A stretch of 18,002 nt of DNA from a virus: the UHGV virus genome UHGV-0701411. One strand, written 5' to 3'. Shown piece after piece: positions 334 to 18,002 of this stretch. Under the pieces are notes generated by a model. That model made no database searches. It was not told where the DNA came from and worked only from the letters and a program-made list of their open reading frames with translations. Position 1 is the first letter of the stretch. Each line of letters starts with the position of its first letter. Made by a program: the position numbers and the translations under genes.

Positions 334-508
334 GCCAACAGGAATACCACAACCACAAAAACGCTACAAAGATGCCCACGGAGCACTCGTTACTGTCGAA
401 AGCGTGTCTCACAACCGAGTGACGTTTTATCGCGACGGGTATCAATCGCCATGCGTACAACCGCTGGCACGTTTCATGAAGGAGTTCGCGGAGGTTAACA
501 AATGCTAA
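326..508 (+). CDS. Small protein, DUF4222-like (60 aa, MSKPTGIPQPQKRYKDAHGALVTVESV...)
   Basis: ATG at 326 overlaps the upstream stop. Short, charged protein resembling the small DUF4222-type proteins found next to primases in P4-like prophages (recalled, not searched). Confidence 0.55.
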   Translation: MSKPTGIPQPQKRYKDAHGALVTVESVSHNRVTFYRDGYQSPCVQPLARFMKEFAEVNKC

Positions 509-1163
509 CCGCCCAGAAGAAGATATTTTCACTGGCTGGTATATCGCCAAAATCCAGCAATATGACAGCAAAGTCTGGCATTAATACAGCAGATACAAGC
601 AAAGTTTATCATTTTCTGGTGGTAGGAGCGGATGCCTTAACTATGTCAGAAATTACGGTCGATGGTGTTAGCATTGAGAAGGTCAGCGGCTGCGCCAGAG
701 AATTTCTGGTCGTAGATGGCTTTCTCTGCTCGTGTAGTGACTCCACAAAAACCTTCGTCCACGCGCGTGACGTTAACGAAATGAGCGCGATGTACTGTGC
801 ATCTGGTGCTTCCAATAGTGAGTTTTCGGAGTCCATAAAAAAGAGCTTGCCGTTATGCGGCAACACGGTTTATGGTTATAAGGCACCTCATAAAACGGGT
901 GCCGGGATTGGCGTCCTGAAAATTCTGAAGGCGACATATGACGCGCCGAGCGTCTTTTTTTATGTCGTAGGTCTGACTCACCCATTTTTTGGGCGTTGGT
1001 GTATAATCCAGCGCCTTTGTCAATCAATGGTGGCTCAGGCGGGGGCTTCTTCGGAAGCGCCGGTATCCTTCAGAGCCGGTTACGCCAACCCTGTCTGGGC
1101 TACCACCAGCGAAATTGGCGTTTCCGGTGGTAGCGTAACCTGCTATCTGAAGGAGGCTGCCAC

Positions 1164-1358
1164 ATGCTGGCTACTACCCCTACCCAAAAAACGCAATTTA
1201 TCTGGATTATCGCCGCAGTTCGCCGCGATTGCCCGACAATTACCGCCAAAATTCATCATATTGCTGCCGAGTCTGAACGCGATGCTCGCCGTTCTCTGGT
1301 GCGCGATCACATCTGCTTTTTTGCTGGTCGTATCCGCATGGAGGTGGCACATGATTAA
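1164..1358 (+). CDS. Hypothetical small protein (64 aa)
   Basis: Strong SD AAGGAGG 7 nt upstream of ATG 1164. Stop TAA 1356-1358 overlaps the next start (ATG 1351). Confidence 0.6.
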   Translation: MLATTPTQKTQFIWIIAAVRRDCPTITAKIHHIAAESERDARRSLVRDHICFFAGRIRMEVAHD

Positions 1359-1569
1359 AACCTACGATGTGCATATGGACCCCCTCGAACGCACAAGCCA
1401 GATCATCACACTGACAGAAGTGATTAATGACATTCTGGTGAGCAACTCTCCCTCACGAGACGAAAAACTGAAGGCGTTACTCGCGATATTGGACCTCGCC
1501 GTTCGTGACGTTCATTTCCTGCTGGAAGGTGGACAAATGCCATGCAAAACGGGGGCAACCAATGAATAA
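1351..1569 (+). CDS. Hypothetical small protein (72 aa, MIKTYDVHMDPLERTSQIITLTEVINDIL...)
   Basis: SD GGAGGTGG directly upstream of ATG 1351. It is the in-frame 3' part of the long ORF 502..1569 but has its own RBS. Coupled to neighbours by overlapping stop/start. Confidence 0.5.
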   Translation: MIKTYDVHMDPLERTSQIITLTEVINDILVSNSPSRDEKLKALLAILDLAVRDVHFLLEGGQMPCKTGATNE

Positions 1570-2841: not shown

Positions 2842-5193
2842 ATGCGAAACATTGATCTTATCCGTCAGGTTATCAGTGCGTCTGAAAACAACTGGCCTCA
2901 TGTGCTGGGCTGCCTGAACATAAATGTCCCTGACTCTCCGCGCCGTCATGCTCCCTGCCCTGCATGTGGGGGCAAAGATCGATTCCGGTTCGATGACAAC
3001 GGGCGCGGTAGCTTCATCTGTAATCAGTGCGGCGCTGGTGATGGGCTGGATTTAATTAAACGCGTAAATAACTGCGACACAACAGAGGCGGCGCTTCTTG
3101 CCGCTGATGTTCTGGGTATTGATTACCGGACAACGGAAACACCAGAAGCCACCAGCCAGAAACGGGAACAACTGGAAACCGAGCGCCAGCGACGCGAACA
3201 GGAGCGCCTGAAAAGGGCAGAGAAGGACGAACAACAAAGACGGGATACGTTTTCCCGTCAGTTTGATGACATGCGCAGAAAGGCTGTAAACGGCAAATCT
3301 GATTATCTGGTTGCGAAAGGGGTAGGTGATTTTACATTCCCCGTGTTGCCCGATGGATCTCTGTTGCTGGCGCTGGTGGATAAATCCGGCGCAGTCACAG
3401 CAGCACAGACTATTACCTCACATGGTGAAAAAAGACTCCTGACAGGTTCGGCAAAGCGGGGGGCATATCACGCCATAAACGCACAGAAACGACCTCACAG
3501 CATCATAATTGCTGAGGGGGTGGCTACCGCCCTGTCGTGCCATTTAATTCGCCCTGACGCAATGACAGTGGCAGCAATCGACGCTGGCAACCTGTTGCCA
3601 GTAGCGGAAGTCATGCGCAGAACATATCCACAGGCACAAATCATCATTGCCGCAGATAACGATCACCAGCAAGGAAACTCCGAAAGTGGAGGGATCAACA
3701 CGGGGAAAGATGCCGCAGAGAGGGCCGCTATTTCCGTAGCTGGCTGGGTGTCTCTGCCACCGACTGACTATAAAGCCGACTGGAACGACTATCACCAACA
3801 ACACGGGCTGGCGGCAGCCACAGCAGCATTTAAAGATTCGATGTACCAGCCACGGGGGAAAGGGGCGCAGGTGAAAAATCACAAACAGCCAGTCGGGGCG
3901 CTGAATGAGATCAGTTCTGGCGAGGTGTTAAGCGATGATGAAATTGCTGTCCTCGAAGAAATCAACCGGACGTTTACGCATGTCACCATTGGCGGGAAAC
4001 ACAAGGTGGTGTCGCTAAAGCCTTCTCAAACCGGCGGTGTATCGCACGTTTTCGAGGATTTATCACAATTTCAGCATTATTTTCATCATAAACCGAGAGT
4101 CGCCAGAAAGCTGGCGGGATCGGCGTGGCTGTCATGGAGTGGGAAGAACTACAAGCCAGGAGGCGTAGGATTTTATCCAGTACCAGGCAAATGCCCTGGC
4201 GATGTTTTTAATCTGTATGAGGGGCTGGCACTGGAACCAATTGAAGGAGATTGCACGGTATACCTTAATCACCTGTTGCAGGTTGTCTGTGCCGGTAATG
4301 AAGAGGCATACCAATATCTTATCCAGTGGATGGCGCACATTATCCAAAAGCCTGATGAAAAACCGTCCGTGGCAATCGTGATGAAATCTGTCCCGGGCAC
4401 AGGGAAAGGCACAACGGTTAAACCGCTGCTGCAAATACTGGGGCAGTACGCCGCCCACATTAACGGGGCGGGACATATTTCAGGGCGCTTCAATTCAATA
4501 CTTGCTAACAAGCTACTGGTATTTGCTGACGAAGTGACGATCCACAAGCCGTCTGAAGCTGACAGACTTAAAGCGATTATTAGCGAACCGACGTTTAACC
4601 TTGAGCGCAAGGGAATTGATGCTGAACCAATGCCGAATTTTGCCCGGTTGATATTTGCCAGTAACAGCACACAGGTATTACAGGCAGGGATAAGAGAGCG
4701 CCGCTATCTCGTGCTTGAGCCATCTCCTGAAAAAGCACAGAGCCGGGAGTATTTTGATCGGCTGTACAGTTGGCTTAATGATGGCGGTGCCGCAAAGTTG
4801 CTTTGGCATCTTAAAGGGGTGGATCTCTCAGGTTTTGACCCTCAACGAGCGCCACAGACCGATGCCTTACGTGAAGAAATCTTGCTGGGGCTGTCTGGCG
4901 TTGAATTGTTTCTTTATGGCGAGCTAATCAATGAACCTCCGTTTAATGGCGAAGTCCGTTTGTTTGCAAAGGATATGGTTAGTCGATTTGTAGCGTGGTC
5001 GCTTGAGCGTGGGGAAAAGCTTAAAGAGCCAGCAGCCAGATCACTACTGGGTAAATCACTTGCACAAATGGGGCTGGTGAAGCATGGAAGACCAGACCGA
5101 GGGAATGGCGTGTTCTACGAACTACCAGAGGTCGGAGTTCTACAGGCTGCGTTTGCCCGTCTGATCGGTATGGGGGGTTATGATGTTTTTTAA
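2842..5193 (+). CDS. P4 alpha-type bifunctional DNA primase/helicase (783 aa)
   Basis: N-terminal zinc ribbon CPACGG...CNQCG. Central TOPRIM-like segment (IIIAEGVATALS, AADND). C-terminal P-loop NTPase with Walker A VMKSVPGTGKGT and Walker B LLVFADEV. Architecture matches P4 alpha / D5-like primase-helicases. Confidence 0.93.
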   Translation: MRNIDLIRQVISASENNWPHVLGCLNINVPDSPRRHAPCPACGGKDRFRFDDNGRGSFICNQCGAGDGLDLIKRVNNCDTTEAALLAADVLGIDYRTTETPEATSQKREQLETERQRREQERLKRAEKDEQQRRDTFSRQFDDMRRKAVNGKSDYLVAKGVGDFTFPVLPDGSLLLALVDKSGAVTAAQTITSHGEKRLLTGSAKRGAYHAINAQKRPHSIIIAEGVATALSCHLIRPDAMTVAAIDAGNLLPVAEVMRRTYPQAQIIIAADNDHQQGNSESGGINTGKDAAERAAISVAGWVSLPPTDYKADWNDYHQQHGLAAATAAFKDSMYQPRGKGAQVKNHKQPVGALNEISSGEVLSDDEIAVLEEINRTFTHVTIGGKHKVVSLKPSQTGGVSHVFEDLSQFQHYFHHKPRVARKLAGSAWLSWSGKNYKPGGVGFYPVPGKCPGDVFNLYEGLALEPIEGDCTVYLNHLLQVVCAGNEEAYQYLIQWMAHIIQKPDEKPSVAIVMKSVPGTGKGTTVKPLLQILGQYAAHINGAGHISGRFNSILANKLLVFADEVTIHKPSEADRLKAIISEPTFNLERKGIDAEPMPNFARLIFASNSTQVLQAGIRERRYLVLEPSPEKAQSREYFDRLYSWLNDGGAAKLLWHLKGVDLSGFDPQRAPQTDALREEILLGLSGVELFLYGELINEPPFNGEVRLFAKDMVSRFVAWSLERGEKLKEPAARSLLGKSLAQMGLVKHGRPDRGNGVFYELPEVGVLQAAFARLIGMGGYDVF

Positions 5194-5223
5194 TATAGTC
5201 TTTTTACAAGAAGATCGCTTTTA

Positions 5224-5328
5224 CCTGTACCACCTATACCACTTTGCTAATTCAGTATTAAAAACAGTGCGTTATAGTGGTACAGGTCAATATCTTACCT
5301 ATACCAGACCTGTACCACCTATACCATT
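5224..5328. repeat. Iteron-like repeat cluster A: three copies of CCTGTACCAC(C)TATACC, two direct (5224-5242, 5309-5328) and one inverted (5271-5288)
   Basis: Read directly from sequence. Lies just 3' of the primase stop; candidate primase/replication-protein binding sites (ori/crr-like) or recombination sites. Confidence 0.6.
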
Positions 5329-5369
5329 AACAAACGCATTTCTTCTGGCTGGCTGAGAGGAAACAACCA

Positions 5370-5600
5370 ATGATGAGCACACCATTTTACAAAGTGCGCC
5401 AGTTAGCTTCTTCCTCTGGCTGGCAGCTACGGTTTGAGGGGCGTTCAGACTGGCTACCCATTGCGGCATGGGCGAATGTTGAAATGTGTATTGACGGCGA
5501 TACCGTTGAAATCATTATTCCCTGCGTGGCAAGTCGGGACGGCTGTATAGAGCCAACAGATATGGCAGCAGAAATCAGAGAGGTAAAACATGAACAATAA
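5370..5600 (+). CDS. Hypothetical protein (76 aa)
   Basis: SD AGAGGAAA 6 nt upstream of ATG 5370; overlaps the downstream gene start at 5590. Confidence 0.55.
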   Translation: MMSTPFYKVRQLASSSGWQLRFEGRSDWLPIAAWANVEMCIDGDTVEIIIPCVASRDGCIEPTDMAAEIREVKHEQ

Positions 5601-6327
5601 CTATTGCATACCGCAGGGAATGACCAGAACGGAGCGCGAAGAATTAAAAAGTTTCGCTACACAGTGCGGGAATGCTGGCGACATCCAAAGTCTGGAACGC
5701 ACTTTAATTATGATTGCGCACTGGATGCGCCAGGGGCAAAGAGTTTCATTTACTGAATATGCCAGCCAGTGGACAGAGGCACAGCGCGAACGGAGCGACG
5801 GTAATCACTCAACACCCGAAATGGCGAAGCAATGGCCTTTCAGTGGTAAACGCTGTATCAGTCCCGGTGGTTCAGATTATTACCCTGCTGGTGTGGGAGA
5901 TGAGCCATGTTGTGACGAGACTGAAATCCGCCACGCAGTGACAGTAATTACCGCTGAATACCCACAATTTAACCTTGACGGACTGGCGCTCCACAACCGG
6001 AATGCGGACTGGGAAAACCCGCTTGATAACCCGTCATTTATCGTATCGGCGAAAAGCTGCCTGAGATGGATCAGAGACAACGGGATGAGTAATGCCCAGA
6101 TTGAGAGCTTCCCGCAGGATAACCCCACATCTGACACGTTGAAGCATGAAGTGGAGCGATATAACCAGATAAACCACCAGCACAGTGATCACCCGCACTA
6201 TATCCCCAACGGAGCATTTATTGCGGCGATGGTGGCAAGCGGCTACAAGGTTAAGCCAGCGGGAAGAATGAACGCATTTTTCAATATTTCAAAAAAGGGA
6301 TTATGTGCTGCTATGGGTAAAAATTAA
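5590..6327 (+). CDS. Hypothetical protein (245 aa)
   Basis: ATG 5590 preceded by AGAGG; 11-nt overlap with the upstream ORF; no recognisable domain. Confidence 0.6.
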   Translation: MNNNYCIPQGMTRTEREELKSFATQCGNAGDIQSLERTLIMIAHWMRQGQRVSFTEYASQWTEAQRERSDGNHSTPEMAKQWPFSGKRCISPGGSDYYPAGVGDEPCCDETEIRHAVTVITAEYPQFNLDGLALHNRNADWENPLDNPSFIVSAKSCLRWIRDNGMSNAQIESFPQDNPTSDTLKHEVERYNQINHQHSDHPHYIPNGAFIAAMVASGYKVKPAGRMNAFFNISKKGLCAAMGKN

Positions 6328-6332
6328 ATAAA

Positions 6333-6437
6333 TGGTACAGGTCTGTACAGGTGGGGAGAGGTCATTTTTACCCACCTGTACCACCTGCAGGCCGCGCCAC
6401 ACAAGGGTTTGTGACATGGTGGTACAGGTGGTACAGC
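6333..6437. repeat. Iteron-like repeat cluster B: GGTACAGG / CCTGTACCACCT copies at 6333-6356, 6371-6391 and 6418-6437, partly arranged as an imperfect palindrome
   Basis: Same core motif as cluster A; together the clusters bracket the 5370..6327 module. Confidence 0.6.
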
Positions 6438-6801
6438 AAAAACAGCGATTTTCTTTATAAGGTATGTTTTGCTCATCTGGCAGACGGAGGTATTCGCTGC
6501 GGTTTGGCACATAGCCCAGAATAGCAAAGAGTTTTACGAGACTTTTGTAAAATCCAGTGTACAAGGGCGTGACGTTTTTGAAGGAGAGACCTACGAAATT
6601 TTCGTAGTTCAAAAAATAGCCTCTGAGATGTTGTTATGCCTGTTCAGCAAACCATCCGCATAGCTGATCGCGAATCAAATTACCAATGGAGCCAGAAGCA
6701 AGGGCAGAACTGAAAAGCTCACGCCATGAAGAATAATGCGACTCCATAAATATAGTTTTTAGAGTCCATAAAAAAACTGTCAAAACCTGACATACAGAAC
6801 G

Positions 6802-6835
6802 ATGCCACCAGCTACTGAACGGTGGCATTTTTTTG
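6802..6835 (+). terminator. Rho-independent terminator candidate (ATGCCACC-loop-GGTGGCAT followed by T7)
   Basis: 8-bp GC-rich stem, 11-nt loop, then TTTTTTTG on the + strand. Confidence 0.6.
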
Positions 6836-6854
6836 TGCTATTTGTTTCATATTT

Positions 6855-6916
6855 TGCAATCACAATGATGAATGTTGCGTTTTATGAAACTATAATAACT
6901 GTTGTTTTATACAGTT
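6855..6916 (+). promoter_or_regulatory. Putative promoter (-10 TATAAT at 6891-6896) with a LexA-box-like palindrome AACTGTTGTTTTATACAGTT (6897-6916)
   Basis: CTGT-N8-ACAG with an AT-rich spacer matches the E. coli SOS-box consensus CTGT-(AT)4-ACAG. It sits between the -10 and the RBS of the 6930 operon. The -35 is unclear. Confidence 0.4.
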
Positions 6917-6929
6917 CTAAGGGGGCGTT

Positions 6930-7103
6930 ATGGCTATTTCAGTAAAGCCAGTATTGATAAGTGAGAAGCAAATGGAAGCGATAAAGAAAATTCAGGAGGA
7001 GCAGCGTAAAAAATCAGAGGTAGGAGTTGCGCCAACGATCCACGAAATTGCTCGGGGATTAATGGATAAGGCGCTGGCTTACACTTTAACTGGACGTGGG
7101 TAA
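6930..7103 (+). CDS. Small protein (57 aa, MAISVKPVLISEKQMEAIKKIQEEQRKKSEVGVAPTIHEIARGLMDKALAYTLTGRG), possible ribbon-helix-helix fold
   Basis: Absent from the ORF track because it is short. SD AAGGGGG 4-5 nt upstream of ATG 6930; stop TAA at 7101-7103, 4 nt before the next start. The strand-helix-helix pattern is inferred from the sequence only. Confidence 0.45.
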   Translation: MAISVKPVLISEKQMEAIKKIQEEQRKKSEVGVAPTIHEIARGLMDKALAYTLTGRG

Positions 7104-7107
7104 ATCA

Positions 7108-8574
7108 ATGGCTACGTGGCAACAGGGTATTAATTCTGGTGGTTTTCTGGCTGGCATTGGTGCGCAAAATGAGAATGCGCCAAAGGCAAGCGACATTAAC
7201 GCAACGCTTGGTATGATCCGCGAAAACAATGAACTGGCTCGATCAGGTGCAAATAACGTTGCTCTGACAGGTCTTCGTGGTCTGGCTGGAGTTGCTGATA
7301 TTTATAAGCAGCAGCAACAGCAGGAGCGTAAAGCGGCATTCCAGAAAGGTTATGCAGATGCTTATGCGTCCGGTGACAGGGAGCAGATGCGTAATCTTAT
7401 TACAGCATTCCCAGAAGAGTTTGAGGAAGTCCGTAAAGGGATGAGTTATGTCGATGATGCTCAAAGGGATGATTATGGCAATCTGGCGCTCAAAGCACAG
7501 GTAGCCTCATCGCTTGGTCAGGGCGCATTTGGCAGGTTCATGATGGATAATGAGCAGGAGATGCGTCGTTTAGGTATCCCTCCAGAAACTATTGCTGAAA
7601 TGCAGGTTAATGACCCGCAGGGCTTCCAGCATTTCGCAGGTAATCTGGCGCTGTTTTCTCTCGGTCATGAGAAGTATTTCGATATCAAAGACCAAATGGA
7701 AGGTCGGGATATTGAGCGTGGCAAGTTGGCAGAGACAATCCGCAGCAATCAGGCTGGCGAAGCACTTCAGGCGAGAGGGCAGGATATTAGCCGAGCAAAT
7801 GCGTTAACGTCAGCATATGCCCCAACAGCAGCAATGCAGAATTACAATCAGTACGCTCAAATGTTAAAGGCGGATCCAGAGGGGGCGGCGGCATTTGCGG
7901 CAGCGGCTGGAATTAATACAAACGCCAAAAAATTAATGAGTGTTAGAGAAAACGATGATGGCACTGTCACAAAATACTACACAGACGGAAGTGAAGAGCA
8001 TGGAAAACTAAACCAGCCAATATCTGGAGATGGGTTTCGTCCAATAGCTTTGCCAACAGCCCAAAAGATCATGGAAAAGTCGCCAGAAGGGGCTAAAAAA
8101 GCTGCTGGATTTGCATACAGAGTTAGGGATGCTCTTGATTCAATGGATACACTGAAAGGCCAGCTTAGCCCACAGCGAGTGGCGATCATTAATAATGCTT
8201 TGGGTAATGGGACGCTGGCTAACTTAACGCTCAGCCCAACAGAGCAGCAATACGTTGTTAATGCTAATGACGCAATAATGGCAATACTCCGTCAGGAAAC
8301 AGGGGCAGCTATCGTACCTGCTGAAATGTCAAAATATTATCAAATGTATTTCCCTCAGCCTGGCGACTCCACAAAAACCATTGATACCAAGCGCCGGAAG
8401 ATGGAAAACCAGTTCAATTCGCTGAAAGCTGCTTCTGGTCGAGCTTATGATGCTTTGCGGGTTATTTCAGCAGTTGACAGAGGGACTTCTTCTTCGTCGC
8501 AGACATTGCCGCAATCTGAGCAGGTATCACAGCCAGCAGCCAGCAGTAATTTTTCTTCACTATGGGGTGATTAA
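7108..8574 (+). CDS. Large hypothetical protein A (488 aa), Ala/Gln/Gly-rich low-complexity, family not recognised
   Basis: Long ORF with start ATG 7108 (track begins at GTG 7096). Stop overlaps the start of protein B (TAATG at 8572-8576). No catalytic motif seen. Confidence 0.8.
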   Translation: MATWQQGINSGGFLAGIGAQNENAPKASDINATLGMIRENNELARSGANNVALTGLRGLAGVADIYKQQQQQERKAAFQKGYADAYASGDREQMRNLITAFPEEFEEVRKGMSYVDDAQRDDYGNLALKAQVASSLGQGAFGRFMMDNEQEMRRLGIPPETIAEMQVNDPQGFQHFAGNLALFSLGHEKYFDIKDQMEGRDIERGKLAETIRSNQAGEALQARGQDISRANALTSAYAPTAAMQNYNQYAQMLKADPEGAAAFAAAAGINTNAKKLMSVRENDDGTVTKYYTDGSEEHGKLNQPISGDGFRPIALPTAQKIMEKSPEGAKKAAGFAYRVRDALDSMDTLKGQLSPQRVAIINNALGNGTLANLTLSPTEQQYVVNANDAIMAILRQETGAAIVPAEMSKYYQMYFPQPGDSTKTIDTKRRKMENQFNSLKAASGRAYDALRVISAVDRGTSSSSQTLPQSEQVSQPAASSNFSSLWGD

Positions 8575-10679
8575 TGGCTAAAGCATGGAAAGATGTTATC
8601 GCCTCTCCACAGTATCAGGCGTTAGCACCAGAACAAAAAGCGCAGGCTCAGGAGCAATACTTCAATGAAGTCGTGGCCCCGCAAGCCGGAGAAAGTGTAG
8701 AGCAGGCTAAGCAGGCTTTTTATGCTGCCTATCCACTACCATCAACGAATGAAATAGACCGATCCCAATCAGCAACTCAAAATATTCAACATACATCATC
8801 TGATAATTCTCTTGCGTCAGGGTATGCAAAGTTAGCTACTCAGCAAAGAGAGGGGCTTGAGCGTTCAGCAGAACAGGGAGCCAGTCTTGGGGCTGCTATG
8901 CGCGATGCTATAACAGGCGAAAGCCGAATGACTCCAGAGATGGAGAGACTGCAAAATGTCGACCTTGCCCCAGAGTTAACCTCACTCAGCATGGATGCTC
9001 TAAAAGCTCGATGGTCTCAACTTTTCGGCTCTGACGCATCTCAGGAAAAGATTCTTCAGAGCATGGGAGCGAAATTAAGGCAGGATGAGAAGGGTAACAC
9101 TATCGTTTCCCTGCCATCCGGTGATTATGCTCTGAACAAGCCGGGTTTATCGCCGCAAGACGTGGCATCGTTTCTGGCTAATGCGCTGGCGTTTACACCA
9201 GCGGGCAGGGCTGGAACGGTGCTTGGTGCCATAGGAAAATCAGCAGCTACAGATTTAGCACTACAGGGAGCCACCAGCCTTGCTGGTGGAGAAGATATTG
9301 ATCCGTTACAAACGGTAATTTCTGCTGGCATTGGTGGTATTGGTAAGGGGCTGGAAAATACAGCGAGTGCGGTTTCGAGGGCTGTTCGTGGTGATATGTC
9401 GCCTGAAGCAAAGGCTGCTGTCAACTTTGCATCGGAAAGAAATCTGCCGTTAATGACCAGTGACATGCTGAAAGATAAAACCTTTATGCAGAGTCAGGCT
9501 CAGACATTAGGCGAAAGAGTTCCTTTTTTTGGAACCGGTAAGAATCGGCTGAATCAACAACAAGCACGAGAAAATTTAGTCAGAACATTTAGCGATGGTC
9601 TGGGTGGCATTTCTGATAAACAGCTTTATGAATCTGCGACTAAAGGGCAACAAAAATTCATTGAGGCAGCAGGAAAGCGATATAACCGCATAATTGACGC
9701 TATGGGGGATACCCCTGTCGATCTCTCAAACACGGTAAAAGCTATCGACAATCAGATTGCCGTGTTAAGCCGCCCTGGCAAATCTCAGGATAGAGCCGCG
9801 GTAAAAGTCTTGCAGCAATTTAAAGACGATATCACCAGCGGACCAAATGACCTGCGTCTGGCGAGGGAAAACAGAACCGATCTTCGAAAGCGATTTATGG
9901 CGTCATCTGACACTGTTGATAAAGATACGCTCCAGAAAGCCAGCGATATTATCTACAAGGCATATACGGCGGATATGAAAAAAGCCGTAGCCAAAAATCT
10001 TGGAGCAGACGAAGCCATTAATATGGCAAGGGTTGATCGCTCATGGTCTAAATTCAATGACATGATGGGAAGAACGCGCGTTCAAAAGGCAATAGCCAGC
10101 GGCAAGGCCACGCCTGAGGATGTAACAAAACTCGTTTTTAGCCAAAGCCCATCAGAACGTTCTCAGCTTTACAGGCTTCTGGATGACAATGGTAGGCAAA
10201 ACGCACGAGCAGCCATAGTTCAGAATGCTGTAGATAAGGCGACTGATCCGTCTGGAAATATCAGTGTTGAGAAGTTTATTAATGCGTTACACCGGAACAG
10301 GAAGCAATCAGCAACTTTCTTTAAAGGCGTACATGGAAAGGAACTGGACGGCGTTATTAAATACCTCAACGATACAAGACACGCGGCAAAAGCGAACGTT
10401 CAAAACTTAAATGGTCAGCAGCTTTATGGATTGTTAGTTGGTGGTGGCATCATAAACGCAGCAGTATTAGCGGGGATGCTAAAAACGGCTGCGTTTGTTG
10501 TTCCTGCTGCTGGTGCCGTAGGCGGAGCAGCGAAGGCATACGAAAGCCCTGTTATTCGAAATGCCTTGTTACGTCTGGCAAATACGCCAAAAGGTAGCAC
10601 AGCATATGACAGAGCGATCAGTACGGTCACACAATCACTGACCACAGCAGCACAAGCATCGCAAAAGGAAGCTCAATAA
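8574..10679 (+). CDS. Large hypothetical protein B (701 aa), Ala/Gln-rich with a C-proximal Gly/Ala-rich hydrophobic segment
   Basis: ATG 8574 is translationally coupled to A. Hydrophobic stretch LYGLLVGGGIINAAVLAGMLKTAAFVVPAAGAVGGAAKAY encoded at about 10424-10546. No enzymatic motif seen. Confidence 0.85.
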   Translation: MAKAWKDVIASPQYQALAPEQKAQAQEQYFNEVVAPQAGESVEQAKQAFYAAYPLPSTNEIDRSQSATQNIQHTSSDNSLASGYAKLATQQREGLERSAEQGASLGAAMRDAITGESRMTPEMERLQNVDLAPELTSLSMDALKARWSQLFGSDASQEKILQSMGAKLRQDEKGNTIVSLPSGDYALNKPGLSPQDVASFLANALAFTPAGRAGTVLGAIGKSAATDLALQGATSLAGGEDIDPLQTVISAGIGGIGKGLENTASAVSRAVRGDMSPEAKAAVNFASERNLPLMTSDMLKDKTFMQSQAQTLGERVPFFGTGKNRLNQQQARENLVRTFSDGLGGISDKQLYESATKGQQKFIEAAGKRYNRIIDAMGDTPVDLSNTVKAIDNQIAVLSRPGKSQDRAAVKVLQQFKDDITSGPNDLRLARENRTDLRKRFMASSDTVDKDTLQKASDIIYKAYTADMKKAVAKNLGADEAINMARVDRSWSKFNDMMGRTRVQKAIASGKATPEDVTKLVFSQSPSERSQLYRLLDDNGRQNARAAIVQNAVDKATDPSGNISVEKFINALHRNRKQSATFFKGVHGKELDGVIKYLNDTRHAAKANVQNLNGQQLYGLLVGGGIINAAVLAGMLKTAAFVVPAAGAVGGAAKAYESPVIRNALLRLANTPKGSTAYDRAISTVTQSLTTAAQASQKEAQ

Positions 10680-14351: not shown

Positions 14352-14471
14352 GGCTGGCTGATTCCTTATTGTGGGATAGCGGTATCATACAATAAGGCGC
14401 AAAAGATAAGAGGCCAGAACAGCAAGCACAAGAGCATAAAATGAGCAACCAAAGGCAGCACCTCAAAATAC

Positions 14472-14738
14472 CGTGTACACAAGGGTGTACCTACTGAGAA
14501 AACGCATTACAAGAAACACAGCAACCACGGGAGTTTAAAGCCACTACTCAATAAACAGATCCAGAATATCGAATAAGCTATCAGCAAAAATCACCAAGCA
14601 GCAAAAAACCATAAAGCCCGCGAAATGTCGGGCTTTTTTGTTATCATGAGCTATCATAACGACGCAACAAAGCGCATGATTATGGTGTACACAAAGGTGT
14701 ACCCAATGAGGTTTGGGTACATTGCTTTGGGTACACCC
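14472..14738. repeat. Repeat family GTGTACACAA(A/G)GGTGTACC (14472-14492, 14684-14704) and GGGTACATTGCTTTGGGTACACCC (14715-14738) upstream of the integrase; candidate Int arm-type (attL) sites
   Basis: Near-identical 20-mers about 210 bp apart, directly 5' of the integrase start; related copies at 6555-6575, 11192-11207 and 11505-11515. Confidence 0.55.
14613..14640 (+). terminator. Rho-independent terminator (AAAGCCCG-loop-CGGGCTTT then TTTTTTG)
   Basis: Perfect 8-bp stem with 8-nt loop and a T-run; A-run on the 5' side makes it potentially bidirectional. Sits between the att-like repeats and the integrase start. Confidence 0.7.
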
Positions 14739-14765
14739 CCTATTCAAAGTTTGGATATTCGCAAA

Positions 14766-16025
14766 ATGCCAAAACTAACAGACATGCAGATCCGCGCATG
14801 GATTAAGAGCGGAGAGCGATTCGAGGGGCGGGCAGACGGTAACGGTTTATACCTACGTTACCGTGAAGCCGACAAAACCCCCACATGGAGATTCCGCTAT
14901 AAACTCGCAGGGAAGTCCCGCGCCATGCTAATTGGTTCGTATAGCGAGATATCACTATCAAAGGCCAGAGAGACAGCCAAAGAGCTGTCAGCCAGAGTTG
15001 CTCTTGGCTATGACGTAGCAGCAGAGAAACAGGAACGAAAAGCTGAAGCACTGGCAAAAATGGAGGCTGAGAAAAACGCCATGCGTGTTTCAGATCTGGC
15101 CTCCGAATACTTCGAGCGCCAGATACTTCCGAGATGGAAACATCCCGATATCCTTCGCCGGAGAATTGATAAGGATATTAACCCCTGCATTGGGCATATG
15201 AAGGTAGAGGACGTTAAGCCACGCCACATTGACGACATGTTGAAAGGTATCGTTGACCGAGGAGCACCAACGATAGCAACAGATGTATTACGCTGGACAC
15301 GCCGTATCTTTGACTACGGGATAAAACGCCACGCTCTGGAGATAAACCCTTGTTCAGCGTTTGAAGTATCTGATGCTGGTGGTAAAGAGGTTTCCCGCGA
15401 CCGTTGGCTAACTCGCGATGAGCTTATCAGGCTATTCGAGGCTATGCGCACCGCAAAAGGATTCAGCCGCCAGAACGAACTGACATTTAAGCTATTGCTG
15501 GCACTATGCGTTCGTAAGATGGAGTTATGCGCCGCACGATGGGAAGAGTTTGATTTAGATGGTGCGGTATGGCATTTGCCGGAAGAACGCAGCAAAAACG
15601 GAGACCCTATTGATATACCTCTACCTTCTCCAGCCGTTGAATGGTTGAGAGAACTACACACCTTTTCATGTAATAGCGCATGGGTGCTTCCAGCCAGGAA
15701 GATGCAAAACAGAATGATCCCACATATTCAGGAAAGCACTTTGCCCGTAGCACTGGCTAAGGTTCGCGCCGAAATGCCGGATGTGCCTAATTTCACGATT
15801 CACGACTTCCGACGCACCGCACGTACTCATTTAGCAGCGTTGGGCGTTGATCCGGTAGTCGCAGAAAGATGCCTTAATCACAAAATTAAAGGTGTGGAGG
15901 GTATCTATAACCGTCACCAGTATTTTGATGAGCGTAAAGCGGCGCTGGCGCAGTGGTGTGATTTGCTGGTGGCACTGGAGCGCGGCGAAGAATACAACGT
16001 GACGCCTATCAGAAAGGCAAAGTAA
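14766..16025 (+). CDS. Tyrosine site-specific integrase, P4/CP4-57 type (419 aa; alternative starts 14706 or 14625)
   Basis: N-terminus MPKLTDMQIRAWIK...GLYLRY...WRFRYK matches the P4-type Int N-terminal pattern. C-terminal catalytic signature HDFRRTARTHL ... Y. The track ORF begins at 14625 but overlaps the terminator hairpin, so a downstream start is preferred. Confidence 0.93.
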   Translation: MPKLTDMQIRAWIKSGERFEGRADGNGLYLRYREADKTPTWRFRYKLAGKSRAMLIGSYSEISLSKARETAKELSARVALGYDVAAEKQERKAEALAKMEAEKNAMRVSDLASEYFERQILPRWKHPDILRRRIDKDINPCIGHMKVEDVKPRHIDDMLKGIVDRGAPTIATDVLRWTRRIFDYGIKRHALEINPCSAFEVSDAGGKEVSRDRWLTRDELIRLFEAMRTAKGFSRQNELTFKLLLALCVRKMELCAARWEEFDLDGAVWHLPEERSKNGDPIDIPLPSPAVEWLRELHTFSCNSAWVLPARKMQNRMIPHIQESTLPVALAKVRAEMPDVPNFTIHDFRRTARTHLAALGVDPVVAERCLNHKIKGVEGIYNRHQYFDERKAALAQWCDLLVALERGEEYNVTPIRKAK

Positions 16026-16118
16026 CCGAACAGACCGGAACTAGCCCGACGGGGCGAAAAGCGGAAAGCCTTACCGCCTGTTCCGGTCACTCTTTAAGGC
16101 AGCGCGAAAGGTTACGCT

Positions 16119-17000
16119 ATGAGCAAATTGTTCCAGTTCAAAAGTTGGTTGACCATAGAGGAAACCGCAAACAGGTTAAGCACAACACTCGGTGAAAGGG
16201 TATCTGTAGCCGATTGCCTGCAATTGGCTGTAGAAGGCCACATTACAATTTCAGCGATATTGGACGAAGGCCGTTACGCTATCGCTGCTCAAGTCATCAA
16301 AAACTCGCAACGAAGAGTTTTTGAAAAGTGGATTGTTGAAAATACTAACGAAGGTGCGGTAATTAGAACTCCTGCCGGTGATGAATTCTATACCAATGAA
16401 CAATTGGATTATGAATACGAAGATATAGAAAGAGTCAGTGATGTTTTTCGTATTAATCATGGCATATACGATCTACCGATGGTTGGGGCTGAATCTTTAG
16501 ATGTTATGCACGAGTTTGACCTTTCACGCGACAAGGTTCCCCGTGAATTTCACAACATGGAAGGTGCTTTCCTCTTAACAGAATTTGGTCTGGTGAATAT
16601 TCTGAACGCGTTCAATGAATATGCCATCAAGTCAGATGAAAATGGCAAACCTAAACTGTACGACAAAGAATCACAGAGGTTTGTTGACTTTAGCCTCGAT
16701 GGTTATCATCCCTTTTTCTATCCTGCTGATGGGCTGGGTAATGTCGAGTTCGTATTCAGAAAAGAAAATATTGCAGAATTTGAAAAGAAAACACTCAGTG
16801 ATAACAACAGTCTCCTGAACCTCGATGAAAGCCTTTTACTGCTTGGCGCGGTGCTCAACGCTTTAAAGAAAGCCGAACCAACTTCTAAAAGGTGGACACA
16901 AGAAGCCCTCAAAGCAGAAATGCTGGATAGGGGTTTAAAATTAAGCTCCCGCTTACTGGATGAATATTTCTCATCAGCTAACAAATCTTTTAAATCATAA
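16119..17000 (+). CDS. Hypothetical protein (293 aa), AT-rich cargo gene between int and alpA
   Basis: SD GAAAGG 7 nt upstream of ATG 16119. About 42% GC versus about 52% in flanks. No recognisable domain. Confidence 0.8.
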   Translation: MSKLFQFKSWLTIEETANRLSTTLGERVSVADCLQLAVEGHITISAILDEGRYAIAAQVIKNSQRRVFEKWIVENTNEGAVIRTPAGDEFYTNEQLDYEYEDIERVSDVFRINHGIYDLPMVGAESLDVMHEFDLSRDKVPREFHNMEGAFLLTEFGLVNILNAFNEYAIKSDENGKPKLYDKESQRFVDFSLDGYHPFFYPADGLGNVEFVFRKENIAEFEKKTLSDNNSLLNLDESLLLLGAVLNALKKAEPTSKRWTQEALKAEMLDRGLKLSSRLLDEYFSSANKSFKS

Positions 17001-17004
17001 AGAT

Positions 17005-17036
17005 AATTTCGCAACGAAAATCCATTTTTCGTTGCG
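17005..17036 (+). terminator. Perfect inverted repeat TCGCAACGAAAA-N5-TTTTCGTTGCGA; terminator or operator candidate
   Basis: 12-bp stem, 5-nt loop, immediately after the 16119..17000 stop and before alpA. Confidence 0.45.
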
Positions 17037-17105
17037 ATGACATCTAATCCCCCTGCTCACATGATTACCGTAACTTCAACAGCTATCACAGGAGTTACAG
17101 GACAT

Positions 17106-17324
17106 ATGACAGCACATAACGCAGCGCAATCAGCACTTCCTACTACTGGATACATCCGCCGTTTTCGTATGCCGGAACTTCTGGGTGTTTCCATGCCAAC
17201 CATTGACCGCTGGGTTAAGAACGGCACGCTGCCGCGCCCAGTGAAACTCACCGATAACGTGACCGCCTTTGATGCGGTAGAGATTAATAACTGGCTGGCT
17301 GAGCGCCGGGGAAAGGTGGCGTAA
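17106..17324 (+). CDS. alpA: AlpA-family phage transcriptional regulator/excisionase-like protein (start uncertain: 17037, 17061 or 17106)
   Basis: Segment IRRFRMPELLGVSMPTIDRWVKNGTLPRPVKL...AFDAVEINNWLAER matches the AlpA/Vis-type MerR-like HTH pattern. Position after int is as in CP4-57. Confidence 0.75.
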   Translation: MTAHNAAQSALPTTGYIRRFRMPELLGVSMPTIDRWVKNGTLPRPVKLTDNVTAFDAVEINNWLAERRGKVA

Positions 17325-17758
17325 TGAAAAAGAAAAACCGCCCCGTACAGCAGGCGGCTAACTCAGATATTCGCACGTCTGATATTACGCCGACCACCAG
17401 CCCGGTACAAGTACCTAAGCGTACCCCAAAGAAACACCGCGCCCGCGTCTATATGCTGCGTACTGGTATAGAGGGATGGACAGAAAATGACATTCTTCGC
17501 TACTGCCGTCTGTCTTCTGGTCGTAACTATGCAACAGAGTTAGAACGCCAGCTTGGAATCACTCTGGAGCGTATCGACGAAAAGAATCCTGATGGTATCG
17601 GAACACACCTTCGCTACCGTTTCTCCTGCCGTGGTGATGTTCTGAAAGTGATCACTCATGTTAACCATCTTGCGAACATAAATGATCACAACGGACTTTC
17701 TCAGCAGGAAATTGCCGACATTCTGAAACTCTACCCGGACGCGTTTAACGCCGCCTAA
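17324..17758 (+). CDS. Hypothetical protein (144 aa) with basic N-terminus
   Basis: ATG 17324 overlaps the alpA stop (TAATG), indicating coupling; no family recognised with confidence. Confidence 0.65.
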   Translation: MKKKNRPVQQAANSDIRTSDITPTTSPVQVPKRTPKKHRARVYMLRTGIEGWTENDILRYCRLSSGRNYATELERQLGITLERIDEKNPDGIGTHLRYRFSCRGDVLKVITHVNHLANINDHNGLSQQEIADILKLYPDAFNAA

Positions 17759-17770
17759 CGGAGACTGAAA

Positions 17771-18002
17771 ATGAACATCGAAAAAAGCAGATTAATTTCT
17801 GAGGCTGCCCCTCATCTGAACGCCTCTCTGGGCACAATTAACGGTAATGAATTTGCCGCAATTGTCCCGGTTATTCCTGGTCATATCGGTGGGCGTGAAA
17901 CCAATATTGTTAGCGCAAAAGCGTTACACAAAGCGTTGGGCGTGGGAAAAGACTTCTCTACATGGATCACTGATCGCATCTCTGAATATGACTTCACCAT
18001 TG
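17771..18002 (+). CDS. Phage antirepressor-like protein (AntA/Bro-N-type N-terminal domain), 3' end outside window
   Basis: SD GGAGA upstream of ATG 17771. Motif SAKALHKALGVGKDFSTWITDRISEY resembles the antirepressor N-terminal domain; the ORF is open to the window end. Confidence 0.55.
   Translation, partial: MNIEKSRLISEAAPHLNASLGTINGNEFAAIVPVIPGHIGGRETNIVSAKALHKALGVGKDFSTWITDRISEYDFTI

Follow-up and report, generated by a model that had tools for sequence, protein, structure and literature searches.

The α primase-helicase of P4, single and multifunctional like that of the island studied here, binds both ori and crr and loops the intervening DNA. Origins of phage-inducible chromosomal islands (PICIs) directly follow the replicase gene on its 3' side and are made of two iteron sets flanking an AT-rich region (PMC6092414). 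For one such island, EcCIMP1, experiments have demonstrated mobilisation by the P22-like phage Kapi1 (PMC11773190). The island type, the PICI origins and the ori/crr system of P4 are already known. Here, we analysed 18,002 nt of the virus genome UHGV-0701411 (the window), whose sequence marks it as an EcCIMP1-like PICI at thrW. Within it, we concentrate on positions 5370-6327, where two small genes, ORF76 and ORF245, lie between two clusters of iterons. This segment appears to be the middle of a split P4-type replication origin. What is new, judging from the comparison with related loci, is that the architecture of the P4 ori core extends to origins with at least four unrelated iteron sequences, that such an origin exists in a split form with genes inside, and that ORF245 belongs to an unnamed family of two-domain proteins tied to replicase genes and to genes for single-stranded DNA-binding proteins (SSB).

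Nine exact copies of the iteron ACCTRTACC lie in two clusters (5223-5325 and 6334-6429), with one stray copy elsewhere, where 0.10 would be expected. The module is thus flanked on both sides by the same repeat family, as the preliminary description of this DNA had claimed, and in the complete copy of the island in enterotoxigenic Escherichia coli (ETEC) H10407 the motif is confined to these two clusters. Layouts are given here in the direction of the primase, with signs for strands and bracketed numbers for start-to-start spacings. Cluster A (Table 1) begins 30 nt past the stop codon of the primase gene, has a GC content of 36-38% and includes an AT-rich spacer of about 36 bp (5241-5278). It matches the annotated ori of P4 in iteron number, orientation and spacing: the six type-I iterons of P4, read in the α direction, are arranged as + (10) + (43) - (22) + (11) + (10) +. 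Cluster B differs from cluster A, with four to five iterons instead of six and in inverted orientation; it repeats part of the ori unit and is comparable to crr of P4. Its layout is kept at four loci, i.e. in the window, L004, L008 and L009. P4 and the island have in common a second iteron cluster at a distance, in the island a candidate cis element, and genes in between. Yet the iteron itself differs (ACCTRTACC against TGTTCACC in P4), the ori core of the island comes straight after its replicase gene, a place taken by crr in P4, and cluster B is inverted and single whereas crr consists of two direct 120-bp repeats.

The replicase combines a Zn-ribbon, a Toprim primase domain and a DUF5906 SF3-type helicase domain with a C-terminal domain that is presumed to bind the origin. 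It is 33% identical to P4 α over residues 7-337 only, the N-terminal primase half; the helicase and C-terminal parts give no BLASTP alignment to α, and the domain architecture is analogous. The type of the C-terminal domain mostly tracks the type of iteron. By analogy with α, we would expect the primase-helicase to bind both clusters through this domain. Relative to the other PICIs, the island has the usual two iteron sets immediately 3' of the replicase gene but departs from the described rule (PMC6092414), since what separates the sets is two genes in 1.0 kb of DNA of ordinary coding composition (~51% GC), and AT-rich DNA is limited to the 36-bp spacer of cluster A. We have fairly high confidence, from the iteron arrangement, that the cis anatomy is that of a P4-type origin whose two parts are separated by two genes.

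The same ori-core layout recurs after primase genes in other elements and is kept across at least four unrelated iteron sequences (Table 1); L008 shares it as well. What changes is the distance to the partner cluster, which ranges from 32 bp to several kilobases, so that the two parts appear separable as far as sequence alone can tell. Because this gap differs between elements, the enclosure of both genes is lineage-specific. Hence, the two genes are enclosed by iterons in the window, as described before, but this is not a property of the module: Xenorhabdus encloses ORF76 only, and elsewhere ORF245 comes after all iterons. In Xenorhabdus ehlersii (L008) there is in addition an ori-core-like cluster, + (9) + (45) - ... 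+ (11) +, at 2793-2888 of that locus. It precedes the primase gene by ~2.2 kb, a P4-like location, and the cluster that follows this gene directly has only two iterons left.

The two open reading frames between the clusters are genuine genes under purifying selection, because their ratios of nonsynonymous to synonymous substitution rates (dN/dS) are low and the AlphaFold model of ORF245 is confident (predicted local distance difference test score, pLDDT, 88.5; predicted template modelling score, pTM, 0.83). For ORF76, dN/dS is 0.28 between E. coli and Buttiauxella and 0.07 between two Xenorhabdus; for ORF245 the values are 0.08 and 0.10. The genes overlap by 11 nt, and each has a Shine-Dalgarno-like purine-rich site 7 nt before its start, GAGAGGA (5356-5362) for ORF76 and AGAGAGG (5576-5582) for ORF245, which bears out the overlap and the ribosome-binding sites reported for them earlier. 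The absence of recognisable domains, also noted then, holds as well: neither protein has a match in Pfam, in NCBIfam or among the PADLOC defence models (E<=0.1), and the single weak PHROG match, of ORF245 residues 184-238 to phrog_9576 (E=7e-4), is to a family of unknown function. Searches of PDB sequences with profiles of both proteins gave nothing meaningful, and a literature search for the protein accessions gave nothing usable. The first terminator-like site downstream of the string formed by the primase gene, ORF76 and ORF245 is the intrinsic terminator of Table 1; between 5193 and 6327 the scan of the + strand reported a weak one within ORF76 as the sole such site. A sigma-70 scan found no convincing promoter in cluster A. 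Some E. coli strains carry decayed variants of 5370-6327 (proteins P0041, P0003, P0039 and P0040). In one, an in-frame deletion leaves ~23 residues from the start of ORF76 fused to ~73 from the end of ORF245; another has a truncated ORF245 of 183 aa (37 member sequences), and further ones have ORF76 with frameshifts.

ORF245 is the member of a large family. Among sequences clustered at 90%, 29 relatives were found, down to 41% identity, all from Enterobacterales and all unnamed; with a profile, 837 were retrieved at E<=0.001 from 1.84 billion representatives. A tblastn search of GenBank phages gave no match, and the same search of plasmids found only a PICI remnant on Klebsiella plasmids. The protein has two parts, residues ~5-100 and ~110-245, each of which also exists on its own, in proteins of about 100 and about 130 residues, respectively; these stand-alone homologues have no Pfam family and match only PHROGs of unknown function. 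In the model, the N-terminal domain (residues ~10-100) is helical. The C-terminal domain (residues ~145-245, nt ~6022-6324) is basic and winged-helix-like, with its elements in winged-helix order: helices at 148-163, 181-195 and 207-216, then a hairpin of strands 221-223 and 229-231. Foldseek searches against PDB and BFVD returned nothing significant; the top non-significant matches are winged helix-turn-helix (wHTH) proteins, regulators of the MarR, ArsR, BlaI and RosR types. All 22 aligned members have a basic C-terminal part (pI 8.0-10.1), and the putative recognition helix, YIxNGAFIAAM, together with a SYGLKH motif, is nearly invariant even in distant stand-alone relatives. The model suggests, without establishing it, that this is a winged-helix DNA-binding domain.

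The neighbourhoods of these genes point to replication. In at least seven independent types of replicon, ORF245 homologues directly follow the replicase gene with its iterons; the replicases are of at least four unrelated types, each with its own iterons. The homologues of L022 and L024 (P0009 and P0012) are 73% identical despite unrelated replicases and iterons. In both of these PICI-like islands, an SSB gene overlaps the stop codon of the ORF245 homologue and opens a conserved string of SSB, a ProQ/FinO-domain protein and PerC. The single domains show similar associations. Genes encoding only the N-terminal domain overlap SSB genes after P4-family primases (L010, L028). A phage-like contig has a gene for the C-terminal domain alone that overlaps the stop codon of a DUF3854+DUF5906 primase-helicase, and in an integrative element such a gene comes after one for a PriCT_2+VapE protein. 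The Klebsiella plasmid remnant has the order C-terminal domain, SSB, PerC. An exception is one C-terminal domain protein in a KilA-N/RuvC phage fragment. Since the family repeatedly adjoins replication genes, ORF245 is more probably a replication helper than cargo. We also infer from these sequences that the family does not read iterons, because it accompanies unrelated replicases and iterons while its putative DNA-contact helix is nearly invariant.

Table 1. Features of the window (coordinates in nt) and of the loci (L numbers) and elements compared with it.
Feature	Position or locus	Strand	Source	Description
Replicase, 783-aa primase-helicase	2842-5193	+		Pfam Zn_Ribbon_Prim, Toprim_3, DUF5906; PHROG DNA primase families
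Exchangeable replication-specificity block	3863-6528			Primase C-terminal half, cluster A, ORF76, ORF245, cluster B
Iteron cluster A (putative ori core, six ACCTRTACC)	5223-5325	+		+ (9) + (45) - (20) + (11) + (9) +
ORF76	5370-5600	+		76 aa, ATG start; small acidic protein, optional partner upstream of ORF245
ORF245	5590-6327	+		245 aa, ATG start; two-domain protein
Iteron cluster B	6334-6438	-		- (42) + (45) - (9) -, plus one degenerate copy at ~6344
Intrinsic terminator	6802-6835	+		ATGCCACC...GGTGGCAT then T run; strong in terminator scan
Ori-core layout after primase	L004		Buttiauxella	CTGTACC-type iteron
Ori-core layout after primase	L009		X. innexi	CTGTACC-type iteron
Ori-core layout after primase	L007		X. 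hominickii	TGTTCAT iteron
Ori-core layout after primase	L010 / L028		Atlantibacter / E. coli 0H26	GTAGGG iteron
Ori-core layout after primase	L029		Metagenomic contig	TRTTCAT iteron
A-B spacer	L007			32 bp, no gene
A-B spacer	L008, L009		Xenorhabdus	About 0.3 kb, ORF76 only
A-B spacer			E. coli, Buttiauxella	1.0 kb, ORF76 + ORF245
ori-crr spacer			P4	About 4.7 kb, α and other genes
Full-length ORF245 homologue	L004, L007, L008, L009, L029			P4-like primases, two C-terminal domain types
Full-length ORF245 homologue	L022		E. coli island	AAA_25 replicase, AAGTGGGGA iterons
Full-length ORF245 homologue	L024		E. coli island	DUF927 replicase, GGCGGATA iterons

We regard ORF76 as a small, acidic and optional partner of ORF245. 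Its pI is 4.6, and its AlphaFold2 model, predicted to be all-β, has a pLDDT of only 65, too uncertain for a fold search. Its family is smaller than that of ORF245; homologues with 44-86% identity occur in Raoultella, Pantoea, Salmonella, Buttiauxella and Xenorhabdus, the last two from tblastn. ORF76 is always immediately upstream of ORF245; the genes overlap in the window, L004 and L029, and cluster B intervenes in Xenorhabdus. ORF245 is found without it at L005, L007, L022 and L024. We considered that ORF76 might co-vary with the primase C-terminal domain and the iteron type, and this was rejected by L029, where ORF76 and ORF245 stand behind a P4-type origin-binding domain with TGTTCAT-type iterons. 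BLASTP gave no alignment between ORF76 and the open reading frame predicted inside P4 crr. ORF76 probably modulates ORF245.

The replication region is exchanged among islands as one block. About 130 of 5,426 complete E. coli genomes contain a thrW-linked island with 99% identity to the window region. Other thrW islands (L002, L003), whose gene order is that of EcCIMP1, show 93-99% DNA identity to the window outside 3863-6528 and none that could be aligned within. At this place, L002, L003 and EcCIMP1 carry the C-terminal two-thirds of a TOPRIM+DUF927 replicase with GTTGGTTCA iterons, and they are devoid of ORF76 and ORF245. About 380 further E. coli genomes have only the DNA from 6528 onward in common with the window. 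The preliminary description had proposed to look for presence/absence polymorphism of the module between the repeat clusters. For the module alone we found none in E. coli: no E. coli island was found to have this type of primase without the two genes, and the polymorphism is therefore a swap of one block, in which the module is exchanged together with the C-terminal half of the primase and the iterons. The comparison with EcCIMP1 (PMC11773190) is thus one of the same backbone with a different replicase and different iterons. The gene order common to both islands is AntA/B, DUF4222, the Ash/Icd region, primase, P22-like ejection proteins and PerC. The thrW integrase and an AlpA-type HTH gene, which also match the EcCIMP1 backbone, lie upstream of the start of the window and are present in the complete H10407 copy.

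How might these parts work together? Cluster A, directly after the primase-helicase gene, would act as the ori core, and cluster B would take the part that crr has in P4. The primase-helicase would bind both clusters via its C-terminal domain and, as α does, loop out the 1.0-kb spacer with its two translationally coupled genes. ORF245 would then bind a generic target, be it a DNA structure, the replicase or SSB, and assist or organise the replisome at the origin, modulated by ORF76. On the basis of position, coupling and domain fusion, we give about an even chance to the core of this proposal, that ORF245 is a replication accessory with ORF76 as its modulator and acts on such a generic target at the origin or close to it. 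One might speculate further that ORF245 represents a widespread class of replisome adaptors: the N-terminal domain would engage SSB and the C-terminal domain the primase-helicase or the unwound origin, bridging initiator and SSB for replicases that bypass DnaA and DnaC, and the location within the ori-crr loop together with ORF76 would tie expression to origin occupancy, i.e. a copy-number feedback. This larger picture we regard as unlikely in its entirety.

Several observations weigh against a role in replication. The neighbourhoods that we inspected are about ten, for a family of 837 relatives. One ORF245 homologue lies in the early region of a Mu-like prophage by gam, with no adjoining replicase, and a large group of C-terminal domain proteins of 128 aa lies in chromosomal surroundings that are conserved and unconnected with replication. 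EcCIMP1, whose mobilisation was demonstrated, lacks both genes, so that islands of this type do not in general need them. The biochemical roles of ORF245 and ORF76 are inferred. Finally, hhalign detected no sequence homology of the C-terminal domain to the primase C-terminus of its own lineage, to the P4-type origin-binding domain or to Cnr. The preliminary description had named confident homology to known P4 accessory replication proteins as what would speak against its reading; for ORF245, none to Cnr or to the α origin-binding domain was detected. Probabilities from hhalign were below 1% for Cnr and for both types of origin-binding domain, and no homologue of Cnr (DUF5375) was found in the island (Pfam; 0.4% for the ORF245 C-terminal domain against Cnr by hhalign). 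Structural scores of ORF245 against Cnr and the α origin-binding domain (RFX-like winged-helix proteins; PDB 1ka8) were weak. Relative to these two, ORF245 is larger, has two domains and accompanies replicases other than α. The island also lacks sid, psu and delta of P4.

Other explanations must be set against replication accessory. PICIs put helper-phage interference and packaging-redirection genes right after the origin (PMC6092414), which is where ORF245 lies, and the Rpp proteins of E. coli PICIs work through a winged-helix domain (PMC6739421). ORF245, alone or together with ORF76, might thus mimic or bind a DNA-binding protein of the helper through its own winged helix, and the family is indeed largely limited to satellite-like islands in Enterobacterales. 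The likeness between Rpp and ORF245 goes as far as both being PICI proteins encoded downstream of the replication module with a wHTH, or winged-helix-like part in ORF245. Rpp proteins, however, are 144-153 aa long, begin with a MerR-like wHTH and end with a coiled-coil dimerisation helix (PMC6739421); they differ in size from ORF245 and have the opposite domain order, as the winged-helix-like part of ORF245 is C-terminal. There is no sequence or structural match between the two, and Rpp, whose structure is in the PDB, is absent among the PDB sequence and fold matches of ORF245. Furthermore, ORF245 homologues occur in islands with different downstream modules, in the Mu-like prophage and in the phage contig, and the coupling with SSB and primase-helicase genes points to replication. 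An interference or packaging factor seems to us improbable, if worth keeping in mind. The basic, winged-helix-like domain and its best Foldseek matches would also suit a transcription factor for the genes after the origin (SSB-ProQ-PerC, ejection proteins), the proximity of the origin being incidental, and in several islands an ORF245 homologue does head the post-origin gene string. But from one island to another these downstream genes are wholly different while the putative recognition helix hardly varies, the stand-alone C-terminal domains are coupled to primase-helicases in distant elements, and no conserved operator-like repeat was seen alongside ORF245; we find this explanation quite improbable.

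The preliminary description had left the choice between replication accessory proteins and a small cargo cassette. A cargo, defence or toxin-antitoxin cassette that landed by chance between duplicated iterons would account for the layout, in which a small acidic upstream gene overlaps a larger one as in toxin-antitoxin pairs, and for the presence of the ORF76-ORF245 pair with two types of iteron and origin-binding domain, which would imply that the pair moves between replicons. Yet the position after the replicase is conserved across genera and the module shows no presence/absence polymorphism in E. coli islands carrying this primase. A known anti-phage defence system was rejected on the empty PADLOC search. 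A toxin-antitoxin pair was likewise rejected, since co-occurrence is not obligate: ORF245 is commonly without ORF76 (as at L007, L022 and L024), which would be intolerable for a toxin that depends on its antitoxin. Chance cargo is thus very improbable in our view, and a replication accessory, given the post-replicase position and the coupling to SSB and primase-helicase genes, is a much better fit.

If ORF245 is indeed a replication accessory, many satellite and phage replicons with self-loading primase-helicases would carry an unrecognised accessory family that has no Pfam model, and this family could explain how such enzymes connect to SSB and to the host replisome. The conserved ori-core architecture links the origins of PICIs to the ori/crr system of P4, and its layout offers a simple rule for finding origins in such islands. 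The block 3863-6528 is a self-contained exchangeable unit, useful for annotating or engineering EcCIMP1-like islands.

Some features of the island outside the origin deserve mention. The region 6528-7100, just after the exchanged block, is common to about 500 E. coli islands at 92-97% identity, whatever their replicase. It has no convincing open reading frame before 6930 and no Rfam match, and it contains two related near-palindromes, TACGAGACTTTTGTA at 6535-6549 and TACGAAATTTTCGTA at 6592-6606 (seen for L002). It could be a regulatory site, a packaging site or a small RNA. Upstream of the replicase gene, the 355-aa open reading frame at 502-1569 (+), named 'ash family protein' by RefSeq, contains Rfam matches to the Hfq-binding RNA isrK (883-960, 67.8 bits) and to the C4 antisense RNA (1023-1110, 79.9 bits). 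This resembles an antisense-RNA immunity region of P1/P7/P4 type with Icd after it. The open reading frame itself is probably over-called, since relatives annotate there a truncated Ash and an Icd-like gene.

At the other end of the window, ~14400-18002 belongs to a second, related island in tandem, with a tyrosine integrase at 14625-16025, an int-alpA RNA at 16034-16100 and, at 17139-18002, DNA that is 89-95% identical to the HTH-gene region of thrW islands. Between this second island and the terminator lie homologues of the P22 ejection proteins gp20 (7096-8574; Inj_translocase, E=1e-83) and gp16 (8574-10679). Ejection genes of P22 type fit Kapi1, the P22-like helper of this kind of island (PMC11773190). 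In ETEC H10407 the gp20-like gene is a pseudogene, and other relatives of the island carry gp14- and gp7-like genes too.

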